NCBI GenBank assembly: GCA_963727805.1
Contig: CAVSHF010000003.1
Location: 960,001-1,024,000 of the forward strand
From: an uncultured Nitrospiraceae bacterium
GTDB lineage: Bacteria > Nitrospirota > Thermodesulfovibrionia > Thermodesulfovibrionales > Dissulfurispiraceae
DNA length: 64,000 nucleotides
Reading direction: 5' to 3'
Both the position numbers and the translations under genes were made by a program. This document shows positions 1 to 51,572 of the stretch, piece after piece (position 1 is the stretch's first letter; every line of letters starts with the position of its first letter). The notes under the pieces are model-generated. The model was not told the origin of the DNA. It was given only the letters and a program-made list of their open reading frames with translations, and did not search any database.

Positions 1-41
1 ATGAAGCGAAAACGCCGAAAAATAGGCCTCCATTCTCAAAT

Positions 42-162
42 TGGAGAGAGGCAGTGGGAATCGGACCCACTCTCGGTTCATTAATATATGGCAAGCGCTC
101 AATTGCCTTGAACCGTGATGCTGGTTTTGCACACCAGATGAGGCACCAGCCCCATGCCCCCC
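42..162 (-). tRNA. non-canonical tRNA-Cys(GCA)-like RNA with tRNA-Sec-like fold and very long variable arm (copy 1)
   Basis: Minus strand: acceptor GGGGGGCA/TGCCTCTC, D-arm GGGGC-TGGT-GCCTC, anticodon arm CTGGT-GT-GCA-AA-ACCAG, ~50 nt extra arm (CGGTTCA/TGAACCG, GGCAA/TTGCC), T-arm GTGGG-TCCGATT-CCCAC, then T-CCA. Confidence 0.8.
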
Positions 163-340
163 GGAAACAGCTCAGAGTAGAGACGGTCATCTCCTATTAC
201 TTCATCCATACGATGGAAACAGTAGCTTATTTGACCAGATATGGTTTCCGAACCGGAATGGCGAAACTGAAGAGTATTCATATTTTCATTCAATTCGCCT
301 TTATTGATACGTCGTGGGTAGTTGTCTCAGAGAGTGTACT
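163..340 (-). ncRNA. conserved structured leader fused 5' of the tRNA-like domain (copy 1)
   Basis: Colinear and highly similar to 34318-34494; stems GAGAC/GTCTC, GGCGAA/TTCGCC, TTCCG/CGGAA, TCCAT/ATGGA. Confidence 0.6.
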
Positions 341-349
341 ATATTTAAG

Positions 350-373
350 GCCTATGCCTATGCCTATGCCTAT
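350..373. repeat. (GCCTAT)x4 tandem hexamer
   Basis: Four exact units read directly; copy 2 has three degenerate units. Confidence 0.9.
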
Positions 374-397
374 GATAGCCCGGTGGATCATTAGCAG
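372..397 (-). promoter_or_regulatory. putative promoter of the tRNA-like RNA (-10 TATCAT)
   Basis: ctgc-w-aatgatccacc-rr-gctatcatag is conserved with 34521-34546; no good -35. Confidence 0.4.
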
Positions 398-775
398 TTA
401 AATTAATATAGATGATGTCAATATGTAAAATAGATTAATTGAATAGTTTAAACTGGAGTTATAGATTTGTCCCCACAATCTAAAGATGGATGGATGATGA
501 CTGGCTGAGATCCAAGCGTTACATTAAAGTTGCAGATTCGAAATCTACGGGACAGACAGCTTCAAAGAGCCCGCATAGGCCGCATTCAAAATGAATTAAC
601 CGGTGCCCTCTGTCAGCAGGTCGAAAGGCCTTGGCTATTTTATTAGGAAGACCATATTTCTGTAGGAAACCGCACTCGGACTAGCACTCTCCGCATTCAA
701 CGCATTTTTGGCTATCTCAGCCGTCACCGAAAGTGAAGAGATATTCATGTTTGTTCCCCGAGATGTATTCACCTT

Positions 776-1528
776 TTATTTTGCAATCGGCATCCCGGCC
801 TCTTTCCATGAGGCATAAAGGGTCTGGAAGATATTCGGATAAGCAAGTTTCATCAATTTCCGGTACGCTATATAACTCCGACTTCCAGTGTTGCAATAGA
901 CAATAATCTTTTTTCCCTTCGGTAATACATCGGATTTTGACGCAAAAACATCAACTGGAATATTAATTGCCGACGGGATATGTCCTTCATTGAATTCTCC
1001 AGGTTCTCTTACATCGACGAGCACGTAATCTCCTTTATCCTCTTTCAGAAGGCTTTGCACTTGAGCGGGACTCAGCATAATTGTCTCTATTTTTTTGCTG
1101 TAATTGGGGCCTGCAACAAAACACAGATCCTTCTCTTCCCAAACAGGAAATCCTTCACTGTAGACCATGATATTTTTATACCCAGCAATTTCCACCTTTT
1201 GCGCGAGTTTCTTGCTCTTGCCACATTTGATGCCATTACAGTAGATCACTAGAAGGGTATTTTTGTCAGTGGGAAGTTTTGATGAGGCATTTTCAAACTT
1301 ATTCTCTGGAATATTGATTGCATCGACGATGTGTGCATCATCATATTCTTCTTTTGTTCTGGCATCTATGAGGATAAATTCCATTTTTGAATCCATCATT
1401 TCCTTCAGTGCTTCGGTGGTGACGACCTTAGATTCCGCAGCGGCACAGAGCCCAAAAACAAATAAAACACTCATTAACGTCAGGCAGACCAGTACTGCTC
1501 GAAATTTCCGAAATCTTATGGAATCCAT
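776..1528 (-). CDS. exported tandem rhodanese-domain sulfurtransferase
   Basis: Signal peptide; two rhodanese domains (LIDAR..EY..HI; VDVRE..EF..GHIP) with loops CNGIKCGKS and CNTGSRS; RBS GGAGG before MDSIRF. Confidence 0.88.
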   Translation of the reverse strand: MDSIRFRKFRAVLVCLTLMSVLFVFGLCAAAESKVVTTEALKEMMDSKMEFILIDARTKEEYDDAHIVDAINIPENKFENASSKLPTDKNTLLVIYCNGIKCGKSKKLAQKVEIAGYKNIMVYSEGFPVWEEKDLCFVAGPNYSKKIETIMLSPAQVQSLLKEDKGDYVLVDVREPGEFNEGHIPSAINIPVDVFASKSDVLPKGKKIIVYCNTGSRSYIAYRKLMKLAYPNIFQTLYASWKEAGMPIAK

Positions 1529-1876
1529 CGTTCCTCCCTCAGGATTATCTTCAATGGAGAGTACCCGTCCTTTCTCCATCGTTTCATGTTGCTACTCATA
1601 TTTTAGAAGTGATAATGAAAGTAAACGTATAATAGATGCCAAAGCCTTTTGGGCGAACATGCAACCTATTCGGACATGCTGATTACATCCTGCTAACATT
1701 GCCTTGTATTTTGCGCAGTTCGCCTCCAAAATAGGTATAGGGATAAACTGATGATACGCTATTTCAATTCACAGAATACCGAGATAAAGGAATTCAATTA
1801 GCATTCCGGCAAGGTCTTACGGATACTCTGTAAACGTCATCATAAAACACATTTTTCAAAATGCTAAGGAAACAAC

Positions 1877-1907
1877 GGGGAGAGACGAATCGATCAGTCC
1901 CTCCCCC
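1877..1907 (-). terminator. hairpin terminator after the rhodanese gene
   Basis: GGGGAG..CTCCCC inverted repeat followed by a short T-rich tail on the minus strand. Confidence 0.5.
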
Positions 1908-1924
1908 TGCATTGAAAAAGATTT

Positions 1925-2428
1925 TTATTTTACGCTTTCCATAGGATAATCCGCCTCTTTCCAAGCCTTAATCCCACCGGGATGTCGATAGACATTCTTA
2001 TAGCCGAGTTTGATCGCCCACATCGCTGCGTTATGGCTACGGGTGCATTCCGTAAACCCACAATAAAAGACAAGCGTCCGGTTTTTGTCTGGTCCAAGGA
2101 GTTTCTCGAACTCGGTCTTCTTATTCTCATCCAACACGGTCACTTCCGGGATCGGGAACTCGAACTGGACGGCTCCCAATATATGATTTTTTTTATAGCT
2201 TGCCTCATATGGCATGGTATCGACAATGAACATGTCCTTCTTTTGGTCAATCCAGGTCTTTAATTCCTCAGTGGTAACTATTTTATATCCGCCTCGTTCC
2301 AGTTCGTGGGCGAAGTTCACAGCGACCTTTTCGGTTTCAAGGTCTTTGTTGCCCAATGAATAGGCACTCGGTGAAAAAGAGAGAACCAGCAAAAAAACAA
2401 ATAGACAAAATAGTGTCTTCTTCGGCAT
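1925..2428 (-). CDS. exported single-domain rhodanese-like protein
   Basis: Signal peptide; VDTMP..SY..HI; loop CGFTECTRS; C-terminal PGGIKAW; RBS AAGGAG before MPKK. Confidence 0.88.
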   Translation of the reverse strand: MPKKTLFCLFVFLLVLSFSPSAYSLGNKDLETEKVAVNFAHELERGGYKIVTTEELKTWIDQKKDMFIVDTMPYEASYKKNHILGAVQFEFPIPEVTVLDENKKTEFEKLLGPDKNRTLVFYCGFTECTRSHNAAMWAIKLGYKNVYRHPGGIKAWKEADYPMESVK

Positions 2429-2596
2429 CGTTACATACTCCTTTAGTTTAGTTAATAGATTGGATTGAGCCAAGTCCATTGCCGCTGCTGCGGTGTGTAT
2501 ATTATGATACGATTTAAGGCAGACCAGGTCTAATAGATAATGGGCTTGCTTGCTCTGTTATTGATTGGAATTACCTATCGAAGCCAATCCACTAGA

Positions 2597-2762
2597 TGGA
2601 GAGAGTGAAGGGGACATACGGGAGTGGCTCTCAGCCTCGTCATCTGAAGTGTTGAAACCAACTAAGAGATTGGAATCCTGAGAAGGACTGAGTGCTTACA
2701 GTGCGCCCAACAGATCTGACGGACCAATTTTAGCCGCTCAGCCACACGTGAGAGAGAGTCCA
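2597..2762 (+). ncRNA. candidate structured RNA
   Basis: Nested stems GAGTGGCT/AGCCGCTC and CGTCA-TCTG/CAGA-TC-TGACG enclose small hairpins; a G-U pair favours the + strand. Confidence 0.4.
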
Positions 2763-10365: not shown

Positions 10366-12552
10366 ATGAGGAAATCGACCAATAAGAACAACGCGTTTAA
10401 CACCCCTATTACTACTCAAATTAGCCATGAAGAACCAGCAGACAAGACCGTTTATCGCAAGATGGCTGTCCATATCGCCTGCATCATAATCATTGGCATT
10501 TTAGCCTATTCAAATACCTTAAACTCGCCATTTGTATTTGATGATTATGAATATATTGTAAATAATTCCGTGATAAAAGAACTGACGGTATCCCCTGATC
10601 CTGCTAAAATAATTTCTCTCCCGTACGATCTAAAAAAACAGTTCTGGAACCGAATATTAGGACATTTGTCATTTGCGCTTAATTACAAGATACATGGGCT
10701 GGATGTAAAAGGCTATCACCTGTTTAATCTAACAATACATTTAGTTAACGCGCTTCTGATTTACGTGCTCATACAGTTAACTTTTAAAACTCCTTTTATC
10801 TTGTCCAGAACAAAGTTTGACCCATCTTTCGACCCAGGGATGAGCAAGTCAATCTCATTTATATGTGCGCTACTGTTTACTATTCACCCAATACAGACTG
10901 AGGCCGTATCCTACATTAGCCAGAGGCTTACCTCTTTGGCGACGCTTTTTTACTTTGTTGCATTAATTTTTTATGTCAAATCAAGATATTCGAAGACAGC
11001 CTATGTTTCTGTGAATTATTTTATTGCGCTTGTCGCAACTATTTTTGCCATGAAGACAAAAGAAATTTCATTTACATTGCCAATTTGCATATCCGTTTAC
11101 GAATTCATGTTTTTCACTGGTGCTTGGAAGAAAAGACTCGCATATCTATTGCCTTTCATACTAACAATGTTTATTATCCCGCTAACTCTCTTGCCAACGG
11201 ACACATTAGGCTCACTGTTTAACGGTATTGGCCAGGCATCAAAAGAAACAGTGTCAATTTCTCGGCTGGATTATCTGTATACACAGTTCAGCGTGATCGC
11301 TACATATTTAAGACTCCTCGTTCTGCCAGTCAACCAAAACTTGGATTATGACTATCCCGTATATCACTCCCTCGCTGTCCCCACTGTGTATCTATCATTT
11401 CTTCTGCTTCTGCTGATTATTGCCATCGCATTTTTTCTTCTTCATCTCTCGCGAAAAAATCGGAGCTTATCGTGGTGCTATCGTTTAATCTCTTTCGGTA
11501 TTTTCTATTCCTTCATAACGATTTCTGTCGAATCGAGCATAATACCAATAAAAGACGTCATATTTGAACATAGAATGTATCTGCCATTTTTTGGTTTTTC
11601 TTTGAGTGTAGCGACAGGGCTCATAGCTTTTAGAAGAAACTTAAATGGACCTATATTTTCCGGGATCGCAATTCTGGCAACTCTTGTCGTGGTGGTTATC
11701 TTGACAGGTACAACTTACTTACGAAATATGATATGGAGCAGTCCCATTGCATTATGGCAGGACACTGTCGAAAAAAGCCCGTCGAAATCCCAAGCTCACA
11801 ATAATCTTGGCCTTAGTTATGCTAAGGTGGGTAGAATTGATGATGCTATCAAAGAATATCGCATTGCAATAACTCTAAAGCCTGATCATCCCGAAGCACA
11901 TAATAATCTTGGCGTAAATTATTCTAAGATAGGTAGGATAGATGACGCCATTAAAGAATTTCTCTTAGTTATTGCTCTGAATCCTGATAATCCCGAAGCG
12001 CATAATAATCTTGGCGTAAATTATTCTAAGATAGGTAGGATAGATGACGCCATTAAAGAATTTCTCTTGGCGATAAGATTAAGGCCGTATTATACAGAAG
12101 TGCATAATAATCTCGCCATTTCTTACGAGAATAAAGGAGAATTTAGTAACGCTATAACAGAATATTCGATAATATCGAAATTGGATCCCGAAACTGCCGA
12201 AATACATAATAAACTTGGAGCTCTTTACCGTAGGATGGCCCGTTATGATGATGCCCGTGTGGAATATCTGAAAGCTATCAAACTTAAACCTGATTTTGTC
12301 GCTGCACACAATAATCTCGGATTTATTTATGAGCAACAGGGTCATCTTGATGACGCAATAAAGGAATACCTCATCGCCGTTAAAATCAAGCCAGATCTTG
12401 ATGAAGCTCACTTTGGTCTTGGATTATGTTACTTAAGAAAGAATCAGCGTGATAACGCTCTGGCGGAATTTACAACAGCCCTTAAGATTAGTCCACAGTT
12501 TGTAGAAGCCCGTAAGTATGTTGAATATTTATCAAAGAGCGAACGACGCTGA
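10366..12552 (+). CDS. TMTC-like GT-C membrane protein with C-terminal TPRs
   Basis: FVFDD, YHLFN..IH..N, HPIQTEAV.YI..R, KE and EHRMYLP motifs; AHNNLG TPR array. Confidence 0.85.
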   Translation: MRKSTNKNNAFNTPITTQISHEEPADKTVYRKMAVHIACIIIIGILAYSNTLNSPFVFDDYEYIVNNSVIKELTVSPDPAKIISLPYDLKKQFWNRILGHLSFALNYKIHGLDVKGYHLFNLTIHLVNALLIYVLIQLTFKTPFILSRTKFDPSFDPGMSKSISFICALLFTIHPIQTEAVSYISQRLTSLATLFYFVALIFYVKSRYSKTAYVSVNYFIALVATIFAMKTKEISFTLPICISVYEFMFFTGAWKKRLAYLLPFILTMFIIPLTLLPTDTLGSLFNGIGQASKETVSISRLDYLYTQFSVIATYLRLLVLPVNQNLDYDYPVYHSLAVPTVYLSFLLLLLIIAIAFFLLHLSRKNRSLSWCYRLISFGIFYSFITISVESSIIPIKDVIFEHRMYLPFFGFSLSVATGLIAFRRNLNGPIFSGIAILATLVVVVILTGTTYLRNMIWSSPIALWQDTVEKSPSKSQAHNNLGLSYAKVGRIDDAIKEYRIAITLKPDHPEAHNNLGVNYSKIGRIDDAIKEFLLVIALNPDNPEAHNNLGVNYSKIGRIDDAIKEFLLAIRLRPYYTEVHNNLAISYENKGEFSNAITEYSIISKLDPETAEIHNKLGALYRRMARYDDARVEYLKAIKLKPDFVAAHNNLGFIYEQQGHLDDAIKEYLIAVKIKPDLDEAHFGLGLCYLRKNQRDNALAEFTTALKISPQFVEARKYVEYLSKSERR
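11899..12068 (+). repeat. 68-bp exact direct repeat with 102-bp (one TPR) period
   Basis: 11899-11966 is identical to 12001-12068. Confidence 0.9.
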
Positions 12553-31426: not shown

Positions 31427-31752
31427 TCCGAATAATCGGATTTAGCATGCCAAATAACAGCCCAGTCAATCCTTGGGCAGTGAAATTATTAGAGCCGTAC
31501 AACTCGCTTCGGGCTGATAATCACTGCTTTAGGCACTTTCATCACCATTGCCGGATTAAAGTTATCCCTGTGCTTGTCATACAGCTCTTTATTTCTGCAA
31601 TGCATTCTGGGGGACCATAGCTCTTTTTACATTTGGGTTCTTCCACGGATGCTTCAGGCTTCCCTCTCGCTGCTAAGGGCTTGCTCACCACATCCGACAC
31701 TCAGTCCCTTTCTCGTCATTGTTCCTATGGCTAACCCAAGAATGACATTGCA
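31427..31752 (-). ncRNA. long structured 5' leader or ncRNA with four hairpin domains
   Basis: TGCAATG/CATTGCA, CATTCT/AGAATG, GCCATAG/CTATGGT, CGGATGT/GCATCCG; GAGCTGTATGAC/GTTGTACGGCTC; GCCCA/TGGGC; TCCGA/TCGGA; G-U pairs work only on the minus strand. Confidence 0.6.
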
Positions 31753-32983: not shown

Positions 32984-34072
32984 CTAGTCCTTCATTGGCT
33001 TGATGAACATGAAGTAGACCATCGTCCAGTTGCCGAGGATTATAAATATGGTCGCCACGATGCTTGATAGGGCGAGGGATGAAACGCCGGTCAACGCATG
33101 ACCTACGGTGCATCCCCCTGCAGTCGCTGCTCCAAAGCCCATAACGAGGCTGCCAAGGAAAACCCGTATGATTTCATTCGCCGGAGGGGCCTGTAATTTG
33201 AATTCGCCGAGTCCTTTGGCGCTAATGTAAGCGCCTAGTGGAATACCCAAAATATATAAAGCACTCCAGGTGCCCTTGAAAATCCCCCAAAAATTAAACA
33301 TAGGATCGAATTTGGACATACTGTCTCCCATCGTCACGGCTAGGAATGCCTCTGCCGTCGGTCCCGCCGCCGAAAGGCCTCGTGTCTGCCCTCCCCAGTA
33401 ATTTGATGCCCAGAGCGCAAAGATAAGGATCACGCCGATCATGGCGCCGGTGAGGGACCATGAATAGCCTTTCCTCGGTCCCTTGGCAAAGGGCTTCCCT
33501 TTCAGGACAATCGGAATGATGATGAGAGCGATAACGCCGATGACTGCCCATTTCATCGATAACCCGCCAAAGATATCCCACAACGCAGGGTTGAAGACGG
33601 CCTCATCGCCGCTGCCAATCGAAACTTTGTAGCTCTTCAGGAATTCCATGACTGGTTTGAGGGGACCATGATAGGTAGCGATAAGAGAAGAGGCAAAACC
33701 GAGAGTGGCCACGAGAGCGGATGTATAGCCTTCTCCCACACGGTATATTATGCCGCTACCGCAACCGCCGGCCATCACAATGCCAAGTCCGAAGACATAG
33801 CCGCCGACCATATTGGCGATAACATTGAAGGATTGCCTCCTGAGACCGAAATCACCCATAAATCCGAAGTCTTCAAGCAGATTCGCGCCAATGATTGCGA
33901 TCAAAAGTGCCAGCAGATATGACCGGAATAAGGTAAAGTCTTCGAGAAATATGATGTCTCTAAAAGCCGAATTCATGCAGTAACGACCTCTCTGAAGAAC
34001 AAAACCGAAAAGAATACCGACAAAGAGCCCACTTGCCAATACCATAAAACTTGCCTGCTGGACTTCCTCCAT
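32984..34072 (-). CDS. yeeE: YeeE/YedE (TsuA-like) sulfur-compound transporter
   Basis: FGFVLQRGRYC; G.VMAGGCGSG; GFGA..AGGCTVG; multi-TM. Confidence 0.9.
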   Translation of the reverse strand: MEEVQQASFMVLASGLFVGILFGFVLQRGRYCMNSAFRDIIFLEDFTLFRSYLLALLIAIIGANLLEDFGFMGDFGLRRQSFNVIANMVGGYVFGLGIVMAGGCGSGIIYRVGEGYTSALVATLGFASSLIATYHGPLKPVMEFLKSYKVSIGSGDEAVFNPALWDIFGGLSMKWAVIGVIALIIIPIVLKGKPFAKGPRKGYSWSLTGAMIGVILIFALWASNYWGGQTRGLSAAGPTAEAFLAVTMGDSMSKFDPMFNFWGIFKGTWSALYILGIPLGAYISAKGLGEFKLQAPPANEIIRVFLGSLVMGFGAATAGGCTVGHALTGVSSLALSSIVATIFIILGNWTMVYFMFIKPMKD

Positions 34073-34187: not shown

Positions 34188-34317
34188 TGGAGGGGAGCAG
34201 TGGGAATCGAACCCACCACGGCACCTTATGAGTGCGACACACTGCTTTGACGCCCGTATGTCTTTAGCCGTGACACTGGTTTTGCAGACCAGGTGAGGCG
34301 CCAACCCCGTGCCCCCC
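34188..34317 (-). tRNA. non-canonical tRNA-Cys(GCA)-like RNA with tRNA-Sec-like fold and branched ~59 nt variable arm (copy 2)
   Basis: Acceptor GGGGGGCA/TGCTCCCC; D-arm GGGGT-TGGC-GCCTC; anticodon arm CTGGT-CT-GCA-AA-ACCAG; T-arm GTGGG-TTCGATT-CCCAC; T-CCA. Confidence 0.85.
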
Positions 34318-34494
34318 GGGAACAGCTCACAAAAGAGACGGCTCCCGCCTTTTACGCTATCCGTACAACGGAAACAGCAGGTTATTTGACTTGATATGGG
34401 TTCCGAACTGGAACGGCGAAACTGAAGGGTATTCATATCTTCATTCGGTTCGCCTTTTTTGATACGTCGTGGGAAGTTGTCTCGGAGAGTGTCC
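34318..34494 (-). ncRNA. conserved structured leader fused 5' of the tRNA-like domain (copy 2)
   Basis: GGACA/TGTTC, GAGAC/GTCTC, TTCCC/GGGAG, GGCGAA/TTCGCC, TGAAG/CTTCA, TCCGT/ACGGA; possible GATATG/CATATC pseudoknot. Confidence 0.65.
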
Positions 34495-35279
34495 TATATT
34501 GAAGGCCTATGCCCATGTCTATGATAGCTTGGTGGATCATTTGCAGATAATTTAGTATTGCTTCAATATATATGTCAAATTGTTTTTGTGGATGGCTTAA
34601 ACGGGAGTAATAGATTTGTCGCTACAATCCAAAAACTGGCGGACGCCGAATGGCGGAGAATGCGGGCGTAACATTAAAGTTACCGGTAACCAACGGTGTC
34701 CCTGAAATATCCGATGCGTTGACTTTTTGGTAACATCAAATAAATGTTCCAGCGATGTTCCTATAATCGACAATGCACTCGACACGGTGAAGACGCTTTG
34801 TTTCAATAAGTAATCGAGAGCGGTACTGTTCGTCAATCTTTACCGAGTTCGTCTCCCTGTCATGTTTGTGAGCGTATAGATAAAAGATTCTCTCAGAGGA
34901 AAAGAACGATAGTTGAGATAATATTTTGAAAGTAATTTGCTATAATTAAACGAATAATAAGAGGTTTATGCTCCACTTTAATCTGCTAGCGTGATATCTT
35001 TCATAGCGCCAGAAGAAGACAGGGGTAGCTGTAAATATGTAACGCCTCGAAGCAGGCTAAGTTCAGTCATCTGATAAAAGGGTGCAATTGATCTCTTTTG
35101 GAAAAAACATCTTTGGCCGGAAGTCGTCTCCAACCAAGACATCTACGCTAACTTCGGGCAACTCCCTCCAAAAGTATTTATCTCGCATCACAAAAGATCG
35201 ATCTGTTGCTAACGGTGATATAATCAAGTTTCAGACCTCAAGCAAGACAACAGCGATCGTAAACAGGTGGAGATAGACC

Positions 35280-51406: not shown

Positions 51407-51479
51407 AGCCACCTGCCGGAATCGAACCGGCGACCTACTGATTACGAATCAATTGCTCTACCAGCTGAGCTAAGGTGGC
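51407..51479 (-). tRNA. tRNA-Thr(CGT)
   Basis: GCCACCT acceptor; ATTGA-TT-CGT-AA-TCAGT; GCCGG-TTCGATT-CCGGC; CCA not encoded. Confidence 0.95.
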
Positions 51480-51530
51480 AGTCTACTATTTTAGTTGATA
51501 TTCTCCAAGACTGCAAAATATGGCACTAAA

Positions 51531-51572
51531 GCTGATTTCGAATCAGCTGCACTACCACTGTGCTATCCCGGC
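51531..51572 (-). pseudogene. tRNA 5' half without T-arm
   Basis: GCCGGGA-TA-GCAC-AGTGGTA-GTGC-A-GCTGA-TTCGAAA-TCAGC; no T-arm or 3' acceptor strand follows. Confidence 0.7.

Follow-up and report, generated by a model that had tools for sequence, protein, structure and literature searches.

Cysteine tRNAs of selenocysteine tRNA shape

The selC* tRNACys genes were described by Mukai et al. (2017, NAR; PMC5389517). The available portions of that paper portray their products as tRNASec-like RNAs with U73 and a GCA or UCA anticodon, place the hosts among anaerobes of the Firmicutes, Thermodesulfobacteria, Nitrospirae, and Deltaproteobacteria, state that the genes always co-occur with selA, selB, selC, and selD, and include opal-suppression work on selC*. 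According to the accessible parts of two citing papers (PMC13582414 and PMC11415595), the class was renamed tRNAReC by Vargas-Rodriguez et al. (2018, RNA Biol), whose work covered its cysteinylation, its delivery by SelB, and the insertion of Cys at UGA with a SECIS. The accessible part of the first of these presents tRNAReC as a rare natural case of UGA switching between selenocysteine and cysteine, in which the sharing of work by the two tRNAs is open. The supplement of PMC5389517 lists 52 selC-like tRNACys sequences, each ~100 nt or shorter overall, and these include Thermodesulfovibrio and two metagenomic "Nitrospirae-type" rows.

In the window, which is the whole 64,000-nt stretch of DNA that was analysed, a gene of the selC*/tRNAReC type (copy A) occupies positions 42–162 on the minus strand and is read from 162 to 42 as an RNA of 121 nt. 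The RNA comprises the 5′ acceptor strand (162–155), the D arm (154–139), the anticodon arm (137–121, with GCA at 130–128 and G32 at 132), a 50-nt variable arm (120–71), the T arm (70–54, with C55 at 64), the 3′ acceptor strand (53–46), U73 at 45, and an encoded CCA at 44–42. The acceptor stem has 8 bp (GGGGGGCA/UGCCUCUC), two of which are G·U pairs, and the D stem has 5–6 bp capped by a UGGU tetraloop. The anticodon stem and the T stem are 5 bp each, with the loops GUGCAAA and UCCGAUU, respectively. The acceptor and T stems thus form a branch of 8 + 5 = 13 bp in which every pair is made; for copy A alone, the minimum free energy (MFE) fold also allows an alternative 7/6 branch by way of an extra A. 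The MFE fold is the cloverleaf (z = −2.79), and equally good folding was reached in 0 of 200 shuffles. In the variable arm (71–120), an outer stem (CGGUUCA/UGAACCG) encloses an inner hairpin (GGCAA/UUGCC). The original prediction had described a cloverleaf with GCA, U73, and CCA at this place, a T loop of TCCGATT, a G at position 32, and an extra arm that folds, and it was right in every sequence detail, on the minus strand. It overlooked the tRNASec-type architecture and hence the known class, as well as the ~480-nt unit common to two loci that is described below.

A second gene of the same type (copy B) lies at 34188–34317 on the minus strand. It is 130 nt long, forms 29 of 29 pairs, and has C32, U55, and a 59-nt variable arm. 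Neither copy was called by ARAGORN, and Rfam at its gathering thresholds returned two ordinary tRNAs only for the whole window, so that both copies were missed. Under relaxed thresholds, tRNA-Sec (RF01852; gathering score, 47) was the best Rfam family for both, with 44.7 bits for copy A (E = 4.8e-07 on 3 kb) and 46.1 bits for copy B (34317→34192). A covariance model built from 25 family sequences matched copy A with 102 bits (E = 5.8e-24 genome-wide) and copy B with 113 bits, and these were the only two places above 60 bits in the genome.

Elsewhere in the window, a weak Rfam tRNA match (51503–51572, minus strand; 26.7 bits versus a gathering score of 29) adjoins a tRNA-Thr gene at 51407–51479; it was not called by ARAGORN and may be a degenerate tRNA. 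A partial 6S RNA match (31636–31708, minus strand; 29.8 bits, E = 0.035) covers model positions 60–130 of 187 and is below the gathering score. At least five copies of a 121-nt unit, repeated directly at intervals of 102 nt or multiples thereof, were found at 11789–12419 within a 728-aa frame (10366–12552).

As judged from sequence and predicted fold, both copies belong to the selC* tRNACys/tRNAReC class and represent no new RNA class. We place them there because of their 8-bp acceptor stem, 5-bp T stem, and tRNASec-like D arm, their Cys marks, their near-threshold tRNA-Sec matches, and the blocks that they have in common with published Nitrospirae-type sequences. The latter are the anticodon arm, the T arm, and the CUCUCCA end, compared by eye (without a computed alignment) with the published Thermodesulfovibrio and "Nitrospirae-type" rows. 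Like the known members, whose acceptor/T branch has 13 bp or is 8/4 with a bulge, the copies combine a tRNASec-like body with U73, GCA, and an encoded CCA in a host with the full selA/B/C/D set. In contrast to them, the long-armed forms reported here have a branched variable arm of 50–61 nt and total lengths of 121–132 nt versus ~100 nt or less; this genome has two diverged copies, each preceded by a leader of ~230 nt; neither selB* nor cysS* adjoins them; and G32 and C55 occur in copy A. Unlike the long-armed forms, the RNAs used experimentally for the class had ~95 nt and came from other phyla.

Bacterial tRNASec (selC, RF01852) likewise has the 13-bp 8/5 branch, a D arm with a long stem and a loop of four bases, and an extra arm that is also long, but it carries UCA and G73 instead of GCA and U73, and the copies score below its Rfam gathering threshold. 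The identity of the copies is therefore Cys rather than Ser/Sec. The GCA anticodon, U73, and CCA are shared with canonical tRNACys(GCA), and the copies are probably charged by the same CysRS. The canonical tRNACys of this genome, encoded elsewhere, is nevertheless an ordinary 75-nt RNA whose branch is 7/5 and whose variable loop is short, in line with the canonical type (~75 nt, loop of 4–5 nt), whereas copy A has 121 nt, an 8/5 branch, and a 50-nt arm. Allo-tRNAs, which surfaced among the false positives of tRNASec searches according to the available portions of PMC5389517 (Mukai et al. 2017), resemble the copies in their tRNASec-like look and long extra arm, but their branch has 12 bp (8/4 or 9/3) and their identity is mostly serine, in contrast to 13 bp and Cys here.

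The genome encodes the Sec machinery: selA (608 bits), one selB (354 bits), tRNASec (selC; 69 bits), and two selD genes with one in-frame TGA in each were all found above the curated cut-offs. One of these Sec-containing selD genes is located back to back with a selenium-metabolism LysR gene outside the window (C5:156495–158420). CCA is encoded in 36 of the 47 tRNA genes of the genome. There is one canonical CysRS (574 bits). A second CysRS-like gene outside the window (C3:1748738–1749955; locus L048, 1495–2715) encodes 406 aa and scores 320 bits versus a cut-off of 340; it has the HIGH and KMSKS motifs, is without the anticodon-binding end, and adjoins a NifU-like gene (nifU). Conservation of this paralogue extends to several genera of the family and is independent of the selC*-type RNA. 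It was considered as a dedicated partner of the RNA and rejected: genera g7, g10, and g11 have it, also in genomes that lack the RNA, and it was not detected in the long-armed genera g9, g24, and g16. Because its distribution does not track the RNA, we dropped the link.

Two paralogous copies and their shared leader

Copy A was predicted to be the diverged second copy of a pair, and the comparison bears this out: of the two paralogous copies in this genome, it has diverged further, judging by the alignment. The G-C/G-U swaps reported for the acceptor stem correspond to G2·U71 and G4·U69 in copy A and to G5·U68 in copy B, and the D-stem pair noted earlier is indeed C-G in copy A and U-G in copy B. 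The similarity of the two loci extends from the CCA to approximately position 520 of the window, so that a unit of ~480 nt, consisting of promoter, leader, and tRNA, is common to both. The identity between the copies is 87% in the tRNA body, 46% in the variable arm, 86–90% in the leader at window positions 223–370, and 70–73% in the promoter area, against a background of 42–46% outside both ends of the unit.

The leader of copy A (163–399, minus strand) is ~230 nt long and has 81% identity to that of copy B over 247 nt. It is preceded by a promoter-like site, TTTACA-18-TAATTT (400–429, minus strand), which was recognized from a by-eye alignment to the site of copy B and falls under the scan threshold when taken alone. 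The leader and promoter-like site of copy B occupy 34318–34578 on the minus strand, with TTGACA-18-TAAATT at 34578–34549, ~230 nt upstream of the tRNA. A genome-wide search with the leader found two places only, those of copies A and B, and no third copy, and no known RNA family matched it in Rfam at E values up to 10. Same-genus relatives also carry the leader. Inspection by eye of the family's other genera showed a similar-looking promoter directly before the tRNA, and we therefore regard the leader as an addition of this genus.

The leader holds several smaller elements. The hexamer CATAGG is repeated in tandem at window positions 338–366, four times in copy A and as three imperfect units in copy B. 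Throughout the genus, the leaders retain the beginning of a small reading frame (MNTLQFR..., MNTLQFRRSSSE..., MKTLRLRSSSSE..., and MSSHRFRRSSSE...), at window positions 223–300 on the minus strand for copy A and at 34370–34440 for copy B. The frame contains some synonymous changes, becomes variable later, and runs into the tRNA. A hairpin, GUUCC-N5-GGAAC, overlaps it and is kept at most loci, though not at all. This region might encode a leader peptide, bind a protein, or act as an RNA structure. Another candidate leader hairpin, GGCGAAAC/GUUUCGCC, was rejected; by eye, it is absent from the relatives G012 and G059.

Conservation, gene neighbourhoods, and the long variable arm

Matches of at least 65 bits to the covariance model were found in 33 of 68 genomes of the family, and 17 of the 68 have forms of at least 120 nt. 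The present genome is the only one of these 68 with two long copies. In a sample of the order, 75 of 151 genomes, representing 12 of 13 families, gave matches, and forms of at least 115 nt occurred in 14 genomes from four families. U73 is present in 25 of 25 aligned family sequences, and all 30 homologues have the encoded CCA, an exact 3′ end, and canonical anticodon and T loops. A structural alignment of homologues had been proposed along with the original prediction, and it supports the fold well. Across 32 aligned homologues, 98.4% of the cells are paired, versus 48–57% when the partners are slid, and the 8 + 5 acceptor/T branch is paired in 99.4–99.6% of cells. Compensatory changes occur at 14 of the 29 pairs, and the observed values were reached in 0 of 500 shuffles. 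Covariation backs all five helices and the inner hairpin of the extra arm. At two same-genus loci, L065 (G049) and L067 (G012), the contig ends 8 nt past the tRNA, and the two tRNAs have the same sequence but differ in their upstream genes; such a pattern would fit two near-identical copies per genome that were collapsed in assembly.

Both copies were expected to lie beside sulfur genes, and both do. Upstream of copy A, on the same strand, are a two-domain rhodanese of 267 aa (776–1579) and a second rhodanese-domain protein of 184 aa (1925–2479). Copy B is followed after 115 nt by a gene for a YeeE/YedE-family (Sulf_transp) membrane protein (32984–34072, minus strand). The first rhodanese is 58% identical to one in G012, a relative of the same genus, where it precedes the only selC*-type gene, which is unaltered; the rhodanese context is thus older than the species. 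A [NiFe] hydrogenase operon begins ~100 nt after the CCA of copy A, in the order small subunit, large subunit, cytochrome b, and maturation protease, and a scan found no terminator-like site between copy A and the small-subunit gene. The hydrogenase was considered as a selenoprotein beside copy A and rejected, the large subunit ending in DPCMACAIH, which is the Cys type. The transporter after copy B likewise did not qualify as a named selenium transporter: it scores below the cut-offs of the TsuA and YedE models and is therefore labelled as YeeE/YedE-family only.

Of 15 long-armed loci in relatives, 10 continue on the same strand with a YeeE/YedE-family gene, and three of the other five are at a contig edge. 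A general link between the long arm and YeeE was rejected; it holds in this family and fails in six long-armed loci of other families, where a C_GCAxxG_C_C protein or a transglutaminase-like protein is downstream. In the short-armed loci, a double-cubane reductase is downstream in 6 of 13. Genera g9 and g16, along with six short-armed loci, have a LysR gene immediately upstream on the same strand, and all 11 of the upstream LysR genes tested in relatives pass the NCBIfam cut-off for "selenium metabolism-associated LysR". Since the downstream genes vary and the LysR gene is steady, the steady partner of the RNA is a selenium regulator, a neighbourhood that fits a role in Sec/Cys recoding.

The variable arm distinguishes two forms of the RNA. 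Long-armed forms (121–132 nt) have a branched arm of 50–61 nt; short family members have a simple hairpin of 23–30 nt. The long arms are closed by a 6-bp stem (CACGGU/GCCGUG), at one pair of which C-G, U-A, and A-U were all seen, and their inner hairpin covaries, one pair being G-C in six sequences and A-U in five. In genera g9 and g16 and in other families, a second small hairpin follows the inner one, and in genera g1 and g24, the inner hairpin is followed by a conserved stretch, GCAC(N)UCAUARGG, that is predicted to be unpaired. Compared with its relatives, the arm of copy A is missing 10 nt of the hairpin tip, is without the 3′ motif GCAC(N)UCAUARGG, and has a longer closing stem. Neither the long branched arm, nor the blind spot of ARAGORN and Rfam, nor the placement beside LysR is described in the available text and supplement of PMC5389517 or in the literature returned by a full-text search with the class names, although the 2018 survey may list long-armed forms or the LysR neighbourhood.

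Constraint on copy A and its possible roles

Copy A keeps 28 of the 29 pairs as well as G1-C72, U73, GCA, and CCA, and five of the six stem pairs that differ between the copies still pair in copy A. The claim that pairing and the Cys marks are retained is thereby upheld. Against this stand four private changes at columns that are invariant in the 30 other family homologues (C32→G, U55→C, C69→U, and one additional A preceding the T stem), versus none or one in most homologues; C69→U still pairs, as G·U. There is also an A·A mismatch in the extra-arm stem. C32 and U55 are nearly universal in elongator tRNAs, and both are present in 30 of 30 of the other family homologues. The identity of copy A to all relatives is 0.80–0.86, and that of copy B to its same-genus orthologues is 0.88–0.93. 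That copy A is equidistant from the relatives and copy B is not points to faster change in copy A.

Elsewhere in the genus, the gene has decayed. The broken copy of G041 (locus L015) has 24 of 29 pairs and 56 bits, versus 28 pairs and 102 bits for copy A, and the homologue alignment gives no indication that copy A is decaying at random. In G041, there are deletions in the D and T stems, and the leader frame is shortened. In G059 (locus L024), a decayed gene that has lost its GCA anticodon and T arm stands behind a recognizable leader, and in G031, also of this genus, no match to the covariance model was found. We read the changes in copy A as relaxed or altered constraint and not as random decay. 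With G32, C55, and a remodelled extra arm, copy A probably decodes with lower or otherwise changed efficiency compared with copy B. The original prediction took such features as selection on structure rather than on decoding, which does not hold as a general reading: G32 and C55 are private to copy A, and members of the class decode in E. coli according to the available parts of PMC5389517 and, for the 2018 work, of the citing papers PMC13582414 and PMC11415595. The relaxed or altered constraint therefore concerns copy A alone.

Copy A is probably a selC*/tRNAReC-type gene whose product is a cysteine tRNA of selenocysteine shape and works as the published class does. From the observed sequence features, fold, covariation, Sec machinery, and synteny, we infer a course from transcription and processing through charging to SelB delivery and UGA recoding. 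The gene would be transcribed from its own promoter with the ~230-nt leader, and the transcript would be trimmed to the 121-nt tRNA. The ordinary CysRS would load cysteine by recognizing U73 and GCA. SelB rather than EF-Tu would be the carrier because the 13-bp acceptor/T branch resembles that of tRNASec, and Cys would be placed at UGA/SECIS sites, presumably under a shortage of Sec-tRNASec. Three metatranscriptome runs belonging to the same study yielded no match at window positions 1–2600, a result that weighs neither for nor against expression.

A different history is possible, though doubtful: copy A might be a passenger losing tRNA function, with the promoter-plus-leader cassette being what matters and perhaps driving or regulating the [NiFe] hydrogenase operon ~100 nt downstream. 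The leader at 223–370 (86–90%) is conserved between the copies together with the tRNA body (87%), and the extra arm (46%) is at the level of the flanking background (42–46%), as would be expected of a passenger. The four private changes, G32 and C55 included, the start of the hydrogenase small subunit shortly past the CCA without an intervening terminator-like site, and the gene decay known in the genus from G041, G059, and G031 point the same way. The state of the gene itself argues against such a loss, however. Its pairs and identity elements are nearly complete, its score is far above the 56 bits of G041, and most of the stem pairs that differ from copy B have been kept as pairs. Moreover, G012 has an intact gene with C32 and U55 in the same rhodanese-linked context.

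We consider it unlikely, but worth stating, that the branched arm of 50–61 nt is a working module and not drift, on which a protein or RNA would dock and so couple a SelB-type cysteine tRNA to selenium or sulfur status, with copy A, its arm remodelled and its decoding loop changed, being a specialized derivative that no longer mainly decodes. What suggests this is the covarying inner hairpin together with the conserved, unpaired motif GCAC(N)UCAUARGG, which this genus shares with one sister genus.

Even less probable, in our estimation, is that the long-armed RNAs are cis elements or sensors, tRNA-like 5′ parts of downstream mRNAs whose charging or protein binding sets expression. The recurrence of YeeE/YedE-family genes after copy B and in 10 of the 15 loci of relatives, the short gaps to the next gene (115 nt after copy B, ~100 nt after copy A), and the conserved, unpaired stretch of the extra arm would be in keeping with such an element. 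The downstream gene is inconstant, however, being in other loci a double-cubane reductase, a C_GCAxxG_C_C protein, or a transglutaminase-like protein, and the CCA, exact 3′ end, and canonical loops of 30 of 30 homologues fit a released and charged tRNA. Co-transcription of tRNA genes with mRNAs is ordinary.

The idea that came with the original prediction, selection on structure and Cys identity, would here mean a role away from the ribosome, such as carrying activated cysteine for sulfur or selenium chemistry, and it is very improbable: the sulfur-handling neighbours, G32 and C55 in copy A, and a very long extra arm that may not suit the ribosome would agree with it, but no family of aminoacyl-tRNA-using enzymes adjoins the gene in any of the 34 loci of relatives, the decoding loop is invariant across the family, the strongest neighbour is a selenium regulator, which fits Sec/Cys recoding, and the class is documented in translation (PMC5389517 and, through citing papers, the 2018 work, in their available parts).

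For the favoured reading as a recoding cysteine tRNA, the genome and its relatives offer several points of interest. The variable arms found here exceed all those of the published list two- to threefold in length, and the long-armed forms show conservation with covariation in several families of a single order. ARAGORN and the curated Rfam threshold are blind to these forms, and surveys relying on such tools therefore probably undercount the class. The two diverged copies in one genome are a natural pair for testing positions 32 and 55 and the extra arm, and the placement of the gene in relatives just downstream of a selenium-metabolism LysR gene gives a testable route to when the tRNA is made. 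If the arm should prove to be a module, these would be the largest natural tRNA variable arms, with a function of their own.
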